A stretch of 64,000 bases of DNA from Eledone cirrhosa (lineage: Eukaryota): assembly GCA_964016885.1 (NCBI GenBank), contig OZ024740.1:341496001-341560000 (forward strand), in the 5' to 3' direction. The notes below the pieces were generated by a model. That model did no database searches. It saw only the letters and a program-made list of their open reading frames with translations, and was not told the origin of the DNA. The position numbers were made by a program, and so were the translations under genes. Shown piece after piece: positions 6,451 to 60,925 of the stretch; position 1 is the stretch's first letter; each line of letters starts with the position of its first letter.

Positions 6451-8160
6451 GATTTCCACACTAGCTTGGATTAGATTTGAGGCAAGTTGAGGTCAGATGA
6501 CCATGTCTTGCTCATACAGAACTGATTTTGGCTTGGTTTCTATGGCTGGATGCCTTTCCTAATGCCACAACATTTACAGTAAGTACTGGGTACTGGGTGC
6601 TTTTTATTGTGATACCTACATGACCAGTTTACTGAGTGGGCTGGGTGCTTTTTGTTATTAGCATACACACACACTATATATATACATGTATATATATATA
6701 TATATATATATATATATATATATATATATATATATATATATATATATATACACACATGCACATACAATCACACACTGTGTATACAGAAGAAATATATTGT
6801 GAATTCAAATCCTACCAAAGTTAACTTTACCTTTATAATAAGTATCAGTTAAATACTGGGCAATTCATATTCCTATAAAACATCATGGATATTAATAAGA
6901 TTATCATAGAAGTGTATGATTAAAGATGTTTTTGTTGCTGTTTAGCCTTAGGTTATCCACTAGCCAGAGGACCCATGATCAAACCAACCATGACCATTTG
7001 GCTTCTGTGACGATCATTATTTTAGACTCAATCCTGCCAAGGTGAACTTTACCTTTCATCCTTACAAGGTCGATAAAATAAAGTACCAGTGATGCAATGA
7101 TGTCGATTTAATCGACTTTCACTTTCCCCTAAAATTGTTGGCCTTGTGCCTAAAATCAGAAATCATTATTTTAGACAATCCGTTATTGTCCAATGTGTCC
7201 TTCTTATTTCATGATGGCAAGGCAGGATTTTTGTTGAGATTTGGCTGTTACTTCTAGTAGATAAAGAAACTATGTAATGACTCCCTTATTTGTTTCCTTC
7301 TTGACAATGTGGATCTATGTGTGATGATGAAAGAAAGAATGAGAGGAAAGAGGGAGAGATGCTAGTGTTGCTTGGATGAAGAGTTGAGAGAGAGGGAGAG
7401 AAAGATAAGGAGGAGGGGTTGTTGAGAGGGGAAGAGTAGAGGAAGAAGTGAAAGTGAGAAGAAGGCAAATAAAATAAAAAAAAAAGACAGGAATGATTAA
7501 AAGAACAAAGAAAGTGATAGAGATATGTAGAGGATGGAGAAATGGGAGTAAGAAGTAGAAAGTATGATGGGGAAGAGATATAGAAATTGAAATATATATA
7601 TATATATATATATATATATATATATATATATATCATCATCATCATCATCATCATCATCGTTTAACACCCGTGTTCGATGCTTGCATGGGTTTGGACGGGA
7701 GTTTTCCCACTTGAGGCAAGAGTGGTTGTCTTGCTCGCATAGGACTGTCTGGCGGGTTTTCTACAGTACAGTTGGATGCCCTTCCTAACATATATCTATA
7801 TATCTATATATATATCTATATATCTATATATCTATATATATATATATATATATATATATATATATATATATATATATATATATATATATATATATATATA
7901 TATATAACTCTCTCTCTCTCTCTCTCTCTCTCTATATATATATATATATATATATATATATATGTAGATAAATCTACCAAAAGTTTACGGTAGTGTCCAA
8001 TCCGTATGAAGAACTCAATGTAATCCGGATATCATGGAAAGAAGAGATGCATTCAAAAATCACTTTCGGTGAAAGATAAACGGAATACAGAGTCAAGATA
8101 AAATGTTAAAAAAATAATGAATAAAACAATGAAACAGTTCCTTATATTAAACAAAAAAAG

Positions 8161-8354
8161 TTCATTATTTAACGATCGTTTCTAGGACATATATGTGTTA
8201 GAATTGGCATGCATATTCAACAGATTTATGTACAAAATTATACAAAATTATACAAACTATCAAATATAATATACAAAATTATAAAAAATTATACAAACTA
8301 TCAAATATAATATACATACCAACACATACATATGCCGTCTTCAGAAATAATGAA
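8161..8354 (-). ncRNA. Type I hammerhead ribozyme motif with ~155-nt stem II (left-arm copy)
   Basis: Mirror of 17164-17326 with a net 31-nt expansion inside stem II. Confidence 0.7.
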
Positions 8355-10894
8355 ATATATTTATTGATAATAACAACAATTCAAAATTACAGGTCTGTTT
8401 GGGAACAGAGTTCAAATTGACCAATGAAATACACAAAAATATATCAAGAAAATACAGTTAGGTGTGTGTATATATGTAAGTAACCTCGTTCACAGATATG
8501 CATAAAAATATATGTTCACATGCATACGCATGTCGAAAAAATGTATGTAAATACAAAAATTCAGGGCTAATGTCTCTGTATGTTTATAATCTACAGACAA
8601 AATACACATACGTATATAAACATATATACACTCATATATACACACATATACATACATTTATACACATACGCGCATATACACATAAACATACACATACCCA
8701 CGAACACACACACACACACACACACACACACACACACACACACACACACACACACACACACACACACACACACACACATACGTATATATTATTATTATAA
8801 CTATATGGATATTAAGGCGCACACATAAACACTGCCACATATATTTACATCTAGATGCAGTAGGTAAAGTAGGTAAAGGGGGTCAGTAATTACTGAGGGT
8901 GTCAGACAACTGCCTATTTATAAAATGTATCTATAAATTTAGAAATAAAAAGAAATATATTAAAAAGAAATAAACAAGTAAAATATACACTCATACATAA
9001 AATACACACCGATATACATATATATATATATATATACATATACATATATACATACATATATATATATATACACACATATATATAGAGACATATACATATA
9101 CATATATAAATACATAGACACACATACATACACTCATATATATATACATATACTCACAACACATATATATATATATACACATATATGTACATACACATAC
9201 ACATACATACATATACATATATATATACACACATACATATACATACATATATACACACGCATATATATATACACATACACGCAGATATATATACACACAT
9301 ACATATACGCACATATACATACACATACACATATCCATGTATATATATACACATACAACCACACGCTCACACACAACTCAGACATACATAAATAAAGAGA
9401 TATACATACACACATATATATATATATATAGATATATACATACACATAAATATATATATACACACACATACACATACACACACACATATATATATATATA
9501 TATATATATATATATAAAAATAAATAAATAAATAAATAAATAAATACACACAGTCAGATAATTATGCACACATATATATATACACATACACACATCTCTA
9601 CAAATATATATACACACATACACACACACACACACATATATATATATATATACACATATATATGCATAAATAGATAGACATACATATACATATATATATA
9701 TCTATATATATACAATCATATATATATATATCTATATATATATATATCTATATATATACAATCATACACACTTATTTACATGCGCACATATGTATTTTTA
9801 TACTCACATACAAACACCCAAACATACATACATACTTACATACACATACATACATCCACGCTTACAAATACGAATAATTATAGGGGGGGGGATTAAAATT
9901 ATTAGTGGGAAATAGTAAATATAGGTTTCAAGGAACATAGAATATTAATCTGCATTTAGATCATAATATGTGTTTACATAGTAGTTTCAGTATTAGGAAA
10001 TGTAAGAAAGAAGGCAAAATTATGCATTTTAATATAAGTAGACTATTAATTATAGGTTAACTAAATTAAAAATAGTTAATATATTGATTTCTAAGGTGTA
10101 TACCACTTAGGTTTATAATATTTAAAGCGGAATTTTGAAGTTAAACAGTAGTAGAGTATTAATTATAGCATAACTAAATTAAAAATATTAACATTATGGT
10201 ATCAATTTTAGGAAATGAATTTAGTAATAGGGAAAACCAAATCAAGTATTTCATCGGTAGTAGAATATAAATTATAGGTTAACTAAATTAAAAATTATAT
10301 ATTAATTTCTATAGTATATGTTAATTAGGTTTATAATAATTAAAGCAGATTTTGTATTTTATCTATAGTAGAATATAATTATAGGTTAACAAAAATTAAG
10401 ATTAATATATATATATATATATATTTAATTGTAAAGAATATATTAATATATTAATTAGGTATATATTTAAAAGTTTATCTCAGTTTATGATTATATGATA
10501 TTCTGCAATCCATCTGTATTAGAATTTTAATTTTAAGCTAACTAAATTAAAATTATAGGTTAACTAAATTAAAATTAATTTATAAATAAATTTCTAAATT
10601 GTACATTAATTAGGTTTATAATATTAAAAAGTATTTCTCTGTTATTGATTACACGATATTTTGTTATATTTCATCTGTAAAGGAATTTTAATAAAAGGTT
10701 AAATAAACTAAAATTAATCTATAAATTAATTTACAAAGTATATATTAATTATGTTAATAATATTTAAAGTTTTTCACAATTTATGATTACACAATATTTT
10801 TTAATCTCATCTGTAGTAGAATTTTAATTAAATTAAAGTTATAGGTTAACTACATTTAAATTAAATTATATATTAATTTCTAAAATATATATTA

Positions 10895-59081: not shown

Positions 59082-59425
59082 GTCGGATGGAAGCTAAGAT
59101 GCTTCCATAGGCGGTATGCCGGTTGAGCACTCTATGCTCTTACAGAGCAGAGTATGGTATAATATAAAACGAAAAATCAGTGATGCATCTGAACTCAATT
59201 TATTGTGTATTACAATTGTTTCACCGGCGGAGAGCTCGAGACGCGATCATTATGTGGATCTGTCTGATTCTGGACCCGTAGGTTCGACGGACATGTCGAA
59301 CCTGCGGGTCCAGAATCAGACAGATCCACATAATGATCGCGTCTCGAGCTCTCCGCCGGTGAAACAATTGTAATACACAATAAATTGAGTTCAGATGCAT
59401 CACTGATTTTTCGTTTTATATTATA
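59082..59425. mobile_element. Fold-back PLE pLTR-like pair
   Basis: 131-bp arms at 59158-59288 and 59295-59425 (one mismatch), 6-nt spacer ggacat, 76-nt extra tail on the left. Contains the hammerhead 3' half GAAA-caattg-TA. (TA)n flanks. Confidence 0.8.
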
Positions 59426-59465
59426 TATATATATGTATCCTAGAAAGAAACCATATATATATATA

Positions 59466-60925
59466 TGTAGTAAAAGGCCGATAAATTTTTATTTTTTAAA
59501 ATCCAGTTCAATGTTGTAGAAAAATACGAAGGGCAAATGATGACAAATGAAACAAAACAAACAAAGTAATGTATTTTAGCATGATATTTCAGGGCTAAAA
59601 CCATCTTTTCAGATGTGAAGCTGAAACAGTCAGACAAAACAAATGAATGATAAGAGCCACAGAGGAGGGATCTATATACACCAAATTTTACAGGAAGGAT
59701 GCCTGCAGAGACGATTTTGTGCACCATGACTCTGGCCTTCCCTGCAAAGCCAAAATGGCCTATATATGGAATGAGATCTCCAGAATACTCGACATATGCA
59801 GTGAGTGTAGTGACAGACATACCAGCATGGTGGAATTCCAAAGAGTTCTCACCAAAAATGTCTACCCTATTTCTCTCACCAAACACCGAAATGCCAAGGC
59901 AGCAGCAAAAAGGAGGAGGACACGTGCCCCTAAGGATAACATGTGCTACCTAAAGTTGCAACATTTCAATGAGAAGATGACAGCTGCCATCAGACAAGTC
60001 ATTCATAGGGAAGGACTGAATATACAGCTGGCACATTCGGTATCCTCTTTGAGGAGACTGCTCCACAGACACCAATCCACCAACCCAGTGCACTGGTGAA
60101 ACTCCAGAGTAACAAGACTCACTACTTAGCCATAATAAAGGAATAGATATCAGGAAAAACAGACATTAAAATGATGACGATGATATATATATAAAATTAT
60201 GCACAAGAAGAATTGGATGTAGTGTGCAAGAGAAGACTGTATTGGTATGGACATGTGATATGCATGGAAGATAACAGCTGCATTAAAAAAATGCAGAGAA
60301 ACCATACATGCAATAATATATGCACATTTCCTAATTGTCCCATCAATAATGCAGAAGTGTGCATGAGAGCATATGTGGTCTATAAAATCACCTGCAAAAA
60401 ATGCAGCTCCTCATACATTCGAAGGAACACATGAGAATGAGAGCCTCTTCTGTTTAAAAACATCTTGATAGATGCTGCAACTAAGACACTGTGGTCACCA
60501 TAGAGGTGACTGAAAGGAATATGGGAAATTTAAGGATTAAGGAAGCCATTTTCATCAATCAAATAAAACCAGAGATAAGGTCAGAAATGCATGAGGCAGA
60601 ATGGTTACTATAGCGATATAGCGACCCCATGCATGTGTTTTGTAAACTCATAGACCAGTTGGGAAAGAAAACTCTAAAAACTCTGATCACTCATTTGTTT
60701 TGTCTTTGACTGTTTCGGCTTCACATCTGAAATGAGGGTGTTAGCCCTGAAATATCATACTAAAATACACTGGCTAAAACATTACTTTGTTTTGTTTTGT
60801 TACATTTGTCATCATTTACCCTTCATATTTTTCTACCACAATGTACCAGCTTTTAAAAACAAAAATATTGGTCTTTTGCTACATATCTCAGAATGCTTCA
60901 TATTAACTAATTAACTACACTATTC
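59466..60925 (+). mobile_element. Degraded PLE 3' half between ~190-bp inverted pLTRs
   Basis: RT thumb IYTKFYRK..HHDSGLP..NEISRI; CTFPNCPI..CMRAYVVYKITCKKCSSSYI..KEAIFI..KPEI. Inverted repeats at 59466-59655 and 60685-60886. Confidence 0.75.

Follow-up and report, generated by a model that had tools for sequence, protein, structure and literature searches.

Inverted insertions of Penelope-like elements with two fixed outer ends in the genome of Eledone cirrhosa

The elements and their arrangement in the window

The window considered here, a stretch of 64,000 nucleotides on contig C1 of the 3.0-Gb, microsatellite-rich genome of Eledone cirrhosa, holds insertions of Penelope-like elements (PLEs), the sister group of telomerase, which we sort into six numbered families. 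Most of these insertions are inverted pairs in which one arm runs to a long outer end and the other stops at a short one, leaving a tail on one side only. The feature is real and of known type; the counts presented below add that the two ends lie at fixed positions in each family and are combined as long with short, a regularity that probably reflects the priming of both target strands on one RNA. Positions within an element are numbered from its long site (0), the short site of family 1 lying at -134.

The most conspicuous insertion is a family 1 palindrome delimited by self-comparison (8098-17389, plus a 134-nt tail at 7964-8097). The tail (7964..8097, minus strand) fills the interval between the putative short and long start sites, and its outer long end at 7964 adjoins (TA)n. 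It forms part of the long-ended arm (7964..12778, minus strand), which is 5'-truncated within the open reading frame (ORF); the short-ended arm (12780..17389, plus strand) has its inner end at most about 4 nt from that of its partner. Since the central ORFs face outward, the arms lie head to head and the outer ends are the 3' ends of the element. The plus-strand ORF (12767..14656; mirror copy at 10895-12775, minus strand) is 5'-truncated and encodes a reverse transcriptase (RT) and, at its C-terminus, a GIY-YIG endonuclease, with a CxCX5C linker and CxxC and CxH motifs. An initiator-like TC[A]TT (17165..17171, plus strand), whose A at 17167 corresponds to -347, coincides with the pile-up of family 1 inner ends and with a putative transcription start; a type I hammerhead motif with a long stem II and a palindromic stem III overlaps it (17166..17324, plus strand; core at 17174, predicted cut after 17316; mirror core at 8344, minus strand). 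Directly after the stop codon lies a degenerate AT-rich tandem repeat of about 140 nt (9960-10950, mirrored at 14600-15530), followed downstream by a long microsatellite-like 3' region carried inside the element. At the other extreme of size, a family 1 mini insert of 169 bp set in (TA)n (22512..22680) joins a 16-nt short arm (minus strand) to a 153-nt long arm (plus strand). The preliminary description of this DNA had given the giant palindrome and the mini insert the same two outer ends, 134 nt apart, and this proved exact despite the 16-nt arm.

Other families show the same build. A family 3 pair (18844..19059, tail about 80 nt) has a minus-strand long arm ending near 18844 and a plus-strand short arm ending at 19059; its asymmetry had been recognized, with a start at 18875, and the long end in fact lies about 30 nt further out. 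The family 6 pair (19085..19380) combines a minus-strand long arm ending at 19085 with a plus-strand short arm that bears a hammerhead core and ends near 19380. The possibility that it is one re-copied unit was rejected, as 20 loci, compared in a search that itself favoured similar junctions, differ in their flanks and slightly in their junctions and are thus independent inserts. A family 4 pair spans 59080..59425 (minus-strand long arm ending at 59080-59082, plus-strand short arm ending near 59425, tail about 78 nt) and an old family 5 pair spans 59467..60925 (minus-strand short arm ending at 59467, plus-strand long arm ending at about 60923, tail about 41 nt). The long/short reading proposed earlier for 19085-19380, 59082-59425 and 59466-60925 stands. 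Family 2 contributes a pair at 24696..25127, with a minus-strand long arm ending at 24696, a plus-strand short arm ending at 25127 and a junction near 24960 beside an initiator-like motif, and an insert at 38917..41491, in which a short-ended minus-strand arm with an ORF remnant (39582-40727) is followed by another repeat that interrupts the insert at about 40900-41120 and by a long-ended plus-strand arm of about 100 nt. The family 2 short ends listed at the outset (19715, 22822, 25127 and 38917) are right within 1-2 nt; the long ends, listed as 23243, 24698 and 41488, are present and lie 2-3 nt further out, at 23245, 24696 and 41491. Three loci do not conform to the simple paired build: a plus-strand family 2 short arm (19570..19715) has no adjoining inverted partner; a minus-strand short arm and a plus-strand long arm of family 2 (22822..23245) enclose a central (TA)n, are only about 88% alike and are possibly two inserts; and a family-6-like long arm (minus strand) is fused directly to a family 2 short arm (plus strand) in a heterotypic pair (24377..24676). 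The other named pairs hold.

The family 1 element has the organization of an endonuclease-bearing PLE, a single ORF joining RT to GIY-YIG, with the RT motif YRDD and VYK..YIG identified from motifs and 46 homologues; a Pfam profile search with three ORF pieces gave no match at E<=0.1. One homologue, P0046, from Octopus bimaculoides, bears the label of a GATA zinc finger protein and is probably a mis-annotated PLE ORF. Pseudo-long terminal repeats (pLTRs) are evident from a partial tandem (L080/L081) with a unit of 6,599 nt and from adjoining inverted 5'-truncated copies. The family 1 pLTR includes a predicted hammerhead ribozyme, its core and stems recognized by pattern and fold (z -5.7); an Rfam scan returned no hammerhead match, only weak microRNA-type matches to hairpins and microsatellites, none at gathering score. 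Neither an ORF nor a canonical hammerhead was found in the family 4 loci examined.

The Hydra clade of C-terminal endonuclease-bearing PLEs is characterized, in the excerpt of Craig et al. (2021, PMC8557442) that we draw on, by a CxCX5C linker, no CCHH, CxxC and CxH around a conserved E and N, DKT in place of DKG, RWK, a (TA)n target and a length generally below 3 kb. Families 1 and 2 resemble it in the linker (CNCRNKANC and CNCRNKSNC, respectively) and in having no CxxC between VYK and YIG; family 1 does so as well in its C-terminal CRLC and CNH and in the SDKTGN and RWR (a variant of RWK) of the L080 unit and of homologues P0002-P0004, and the family 2 ORF remnant ends before the C-terminal CxxC/CxH region. 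Further likenesses are the hammerhead motif and the (TA)n target, ATAT following 34 of 40 long ends and 42 of the 58 other ends tallied. Family 1 departs from the clade in the size of its unit, 6.6 kb, which is due to the long microsatellite-rich 3' region. Families 1 and 2, which are about 46-50% identical over two blocks, thus carry Hydra-clade motifs, and it is by these motifs that we would assign them. Family 5, in which the ORF is broken, is in a clade other than Hydra, judging from a CxxC within the GIY-YIG core of an endonuclease piece assessed by eye.

Outer and inner ends across the genome

Family 1 was surveyed with a 26-mer located upstream of both ends, which has 5,249 exact matches genome-wide; the first 100 by position on contig C1 gave a positionally unbiased sample of 98 retrieved arms, 2 being dropped. 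The family 2 sample comprises the first 82 of 44,950 anchor matches, and those of families 3-6 are best-score matches, with a bias toward long arms. Because automatic junction calls were noisy in microsatellites, a table of 42 family 1 pairs was curated by hand, from which L078 and L119, with nested or tandem centres, were excluded. A near-identical copy of the window region, a segmental or haplotype duplicate, lies about 750 kb downstream (G000:C1 ~342.25-342.31 Mb); loci L002, L222, L251, L281 and L311 represent duplicates of the window region and are not independent.

None of the 98 family 1 arms ends more than 3 nt from one or other of two sites that are separated by 134 nt; the long site (0/-1) accounts for 43 of them and the short site (-131 to -136) for 55. 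The distribution is bimodal and paired in inverted orientation, as the preliminary description had expected of a genomic tabulation, and scattered ends were not seen. These arms resolve into 43 long+short pairs, one insert with a partner that stops at -179, 15 inserts that consist of a single arm, and 7 unresolved arms. Both arms are anchored in 31 of the pairs (one with an extra internal tandem arm) and one arm is anchored in 12; one further long+short pair was met incidentally. Not a single long+long or short+short combination occurs among the 43 head-to-head pairs with both ends at the two sites, the sole short-short and the sole long-long adjacency in the sample being a nested insert and an internal tandem junction. 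At even odds, the chance that all 42 curated pairs would be long+short is about 2e-13, and a chance origin of the pairing is excluded. An inverted partner that ends near -179, at another T-rich/TA site, is found at L042 and L356 and possibly marks a minor third start site.

The same rule governs the other families. In family 2, 51 of the 82 arms are short and 31 bear the tail, and the 15 pairs with both anchors are all long+short. In the best-score sample of family 4, the inverted partner stops at -78 to -82 in 15 of 18 cases and in no case at the long site; a partner within 700 nt is lacking for 11 of 29 arms. Families 3, 5 and 6 exhibit the same asymmetry with more noise. The tail measures 134 nt in family 1, about 90 nt in family 2, 80 nt in family 3, 78 nt in family 4 and about 41 nt in family 5. 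Young copies, 96-100% identical, follow the rule as well. What had been formulated as a general principle, namely two family-fixed outer ends, one per target strand, with long joined to short at all scales and in several families, is therefore upheld in substance; its universality is not, since 15 of the 98 family 1 arms are single-arm inserts. An assembly artefact was ruled out by the 4 differences in 2,871 compared bases, plus indels, between the arms of the giant palindrome, and by dozens of independent loci of like build. At the long ends of families 3, 4 and 5 (for example 60923-60967, L226, L228 and L296), a variable (AC)n or (CT)n tract often precedes (TA)n and repeats the last dinucleotide of the element, either by reiterative telomerase-like priming or by later slippage.

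The inner ends had been thought random, a view that their distribution contradicts. In family 1, 17 of 98 inner ends fall exactly at -347 and 32 in the 9-nt window from -347 to -339, at an initiator-like motif, as compared with 16 in the next 161 nt; genome-wide, 1,730 of 5,887 matches lack the C that precedes -347, the base at -347 being the A of TCATT. Matching clusters exist in family 2, where 14 of 82 inner ends fall between -3 and +8 relative to a CACT-type motif and the interval from -60 to -11 is empty, and in family 4, with 13 of 29 at -2 to +6 of CCAGT. Two other origins of the clusters were considered and set aside: the hammerhead cut cannot be the main 5' end of the template, as a start at the predicted ribozyme cut is seen in only 1 of 98 arms, and the edge of hammerhead stem I coincides with the cluster in family 1 only, the family 2 core lying 79-91 nt downstream of its cluster. 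The simplest reading of the pile-up is that cDNA synthesis would run off at an RNA polymerase II start inside the pLTR. A motif resembling the downstream promoter element (DPE) stands at +27/+28 in 30 of the 33 family 2 arms that have the CACT-type motif, and at +28 family 4 has a sequence in agreement with the RGACGTGY element that has been reported for Penelope; the initiator (Inr) motif, with or without the DPE, is a likely candidate for the transcription start. Where arms meet, 0-4 nt of microhomology or short inserts are present. At L045 and L082 the inner junctions are centred on the palindromic hammerhead stem III, which is the source of the microhomology.

A comparable promoter is known from Penelope of Drosophila virilis, for which the part of Schostak et al. 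(2008, PMC2377424) used here reports an Inr and a DPE within the pLTR, an experimentally mapped start and an intron 46 bp past that start. The elements of E. cirrhosa share the Inr and DPE in the pLTR, and the donor-like GT of family 2 at +40 to +46 compares with the intron at +46; they differ in that the start is deduced from the ends of cDNA run-off. This GT is present in 29 of 33 family 2 arms (L151-L220), and family 1 has a donor-like GTATGT at +33 (window 17167-17205) and a TTTAG just upstream of the ATG, such that an intron could include the tail together with both start sites. If the start sites do lie in a 5' intron, this would also account for the retention of introns by PLEs.

Number of templates and mode of integration

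The nearest experimental system is PAc, the Poseidon element of Anolis carolinensis. According to the passages of Frangieh et al. (2024, PMC11167929) at our disposal, its protein cuts and extends both strands in vitro and uses two internal start sites that bound the tail; ribozyme cleavage is dispensable, the protein is predicted to be a dimer, and the start sites have no homology to the target. By analogy with that work, the two fixed genomic ends of E. cirrhosa PLEs may be taken as sites of priming. We consider it probable, from the genomic sequences compared here, that both nicked (TA)n strands prime RT at two fixed internal sites on the same RNA, giving inverted long and short arms, and programmed twin priming on one RNA appears to be the best description of the process.

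Several counts argue for a common template. At diagnostic sites of family 1, mismatches number 12 in 526 comparisons made within pairs (the nested non-pair L078 contributing 3), versus 8,451 in 41,012 made between pairs; in family 2, all 14 comparable pairs have arms with an identity of 0.93 or more, a level reached in 18% of between-pair comparisons. Arms that begin in the start cluster are never paired with arms reaching beyond -365 (0 observed versus 10.8 expected in the 42 pairs; 0 of 200,000 permutations), even though mini and long copies have haplotypes in common, and the two arms therefore look as though a single pLTR copy had served to prime both. Were one RNA the template, either start site could be occupied only once, and long+short would follow without a further rule. 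The lengths of the arms are informative as well: they overlap in 32 of the 42 pairs, the long arm is tail-only (30-119 nt) in 10 and then has nothing in common with its partner, and 20 pairs have a short-ended arm that exceeds the long-ended one by more than 12 nt. On the target side, two informative loci have 8-bp duplications, or 8-11 bp or more when flanking matches to the element are counted. At one locus with a readable 8-bp duplication, L084/L332 (G000:C1:52246459-52247011), a family 1 element interrupts a family 2 pLTR in its hammerhead stem III region. At both start sites AT-type letters come next in the element, with a 2-4 nt AU-type match to the target phase that is confounded by (TA)n; genome-wide, a non-A follows the long end in 75 matches, and ATAAT and then a non-T is seen in 93, both being absolute counts.

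In such a process, the protein would nick the two strands about 8-11 nt apart, producing primers that end in AT and could pair with AU at each start site. Within a single pLTR copy, one primer would engage the long site and its counterpart the short site, each site being used once. Each cDNA would then extend to the point of enzyme drop-off or to the 5' end of the RNA, the trailing cDNA displacing the leading one if it passes it, and the two cDNA 3' ends would be joined by microhomology and filled in. Synthesis primed in the 5' leader would generate the abundant mini palindromes, which extend no further than the transcription start, synthesis primed in the downstream pLTR would generate kilobase arms, and single-arm inserts would be events in which one primer remained unextended. 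In a stronger form, which we advance tentatively as a possibility that falls somewhat short of probable, PLE integration would be an obligate programmed twin priming in which a dimeric RT-endonuclease acts on one unspliced RNA, takes one nicked strand to each built-in start site and makes both halves of the insertion at once. Mini inserts with a full long arm might then be self-contained non-autonomous units, because the promoter (Inr+DPE) and both start sites are within about 250-350 nt of the RNA 5' end.

Other routes have to be weighed against programmed twin priming. A single cDNA could fold back and copy itself, or an antisense RNA could prime itself, with an endonuclease resolving the hairpin at a fixed short site and leaving the tail. 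Near-symmetric junctions away from the start cluster (4 observed versus 0.31 expected) are what this would produce, and the giant and mini inserts are themselves near-symmetric. Folding back cannot, on the other hand, yield the 10 pairs with non-overlapping arms or the 20 with a longer short-ended arm, and PAc primes at both sites in vitro (PMC11167929, in the passages cited above); as a general explanation it is unlikely, and it probably accounts for a minority of events. We regard as improbable the proposal, close to that of the preliminary description, that two RNAs sit on an asymmetric protein dimer, possibly paired by the palindromic hammerhead stem III, with one target strand priming on each. 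The palindromic stem is indeed present, such hammerheads have been proposed to act as dimers (PMC4209133, in the part consulted), the predicted dimer of PAc would suit the scheme, overlapping arms would need no strand displacement, and the heterotypic pair at 24377-24676 and a polymorphic difference between the giant arms would find an explanation. Yet an extra rule would be required to prevent long+long and short+short and to impose the same pLTR copy, arms agree by subfamily, family 4 obeys the rule although no canonical hammerhead was found in the loci seen, and PAc insertion is unaffected by hammerhead mutants (PMC11167929, same passages). The strict complementarity of long and short, the common variants, the coupling of inner ends and the single arm at the predicted cut all disfavour a two-RNA intermediate built on dimeric hammerheads.

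It might also be supposed that ends are chosen independently, that long+long and short+short palindromes are lost later and that arms are homogenized by gene conversion. Palindromes are unstable, and single-arm inserts exist. However, long+short pairs are equally palindromic over their common arm, tail-only pairs are not palindromic at all, young copies already obey the rule and the giant arms retain private differences; we hold this explanation to be very improbable indeed.

A number of observations nevertheless count against programmed twin priming on one RNA. Of the 4 differences between the giant arms, one falls at a site that is polymorphic among other copies, and the heterotypic pair is at odds with one template. 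Family 3 locus L256 may be a long+long pair, head to head with (TA)n between its arms. Short inverted pieces that reach no pLTR end (L114, L044 and L042; L247, L248 and L250 in family 4) resemble products of folding back, which would likewise predict the excess of longer long arms among near-symmetric junctions (11 versus 3, that is, 11 of 14 untied cases). Common variants would also be expected if two RNAs came from one locus or if the arms were homogenized later. The AU match is inseparable from a constant phase of nicking in (TA)n, and PAc initiates at sites devoid of homology. Lastly, an extra G at the inner end occurs in 428 of the 1,730 matches, about half of 30 inspected cases being due to the partner arm or to local duplication, and is only a hint of cap copying.

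Relation to known systems and other repeats of the window

In LINE-1 twin priming, both target strands prime on one RNA and the resulting inversion is joined by microhomology; it is occasional, uses a random internal second site and leaves non-overlapping segments. The process proposed here is alike in the priming of one RNA by both target strands and in the microhomology joins, and unlike in that both sites are fixed, the inverted pair is the usual outcome and the arms mostly overlap.

Among PLEs, the inverted pLTR with an optional one-sided tail of 30-40 bp has been ascribed to antisense self-priming or to endonuclease resolution (Arkhipova et al., 2013, PMC3846280; Craig et al., 2021, PMC8557442, both in excerpt). 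The one-sidedness recurs here, and the length is matched only by family 5 among families 1-5; compared with what these excerpts describe, the pairing is strict and counted, the tails span about 40-134 nt and the non-overlapping arms exclude self-priming as the general route. As with PAc, hairpins lie near the long site in several families, significantly in only some; unlike the sites of PAc, which the same passages place inside the ORF, about 111-118 nt from its start, those of family 1 precede the ORF, the ATG being 154 nt downstream of the long site. The PAc passages are silent on whether both sites serve in one event, on how many RNAs take part and on run-off at a transcription start. The sources consulted in part further cover dimeric hammerheads (PMC4209133) and retrozymes as PLE derivatives (a 2026 preprint). 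The idea of a fixed two-end rule is less novel than first supposed, given that the one-sided tail and the two RT start sites that bound it are already in print (PMC8557442 and PMC11167929, in the sections used). Within the literature searched, no statement of strict pairing, single-RNA coupling, twin priming or start-site run-off was found for PLEs, and older key Penelope papers outside that scope may hold part of it. What is new is the counted rule, together with tails that lie outside the ORF and reach 134 nt, the exclusion of folding back as the general route and indirect support for twin priming on one RNA.

The counts merge tail and inverted arms into one rule that can be tested in the existing PAc system; two-site priming thereby offers a testable account of the long-known PLE tail. 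If true, it would be a third way to finish a retrotransposon insertion, without a separate step of second-strand priming on the cDNA. It would also account for the great abundance of mini palindromes, of which the 44,950 family 2 anchor matches give an idea, and would permit PLE promoters to be mapped from DNA alone.

The window contains further repeats. Inward-facing perfect inverted repeats of 37 bp surround (TA)n at 21117-21368, in a build unlike that of the PLE pairs. Two families of repeats resemble short interspersed nuclear elements, one at 28430-28625, 40900-41120, 43120-43870 and 63100-63213, the other at 3655-4021 and 17473-17832; the second has a weak tRNA match at 17503-17560 and likewise sits in (TA)n. 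An 8.3-kb satellite with a period of 39 nt, read as a 13-residue repeat in open frames, occupies 44030-52335; its copies are about 95% alike and it is probably non-coding.

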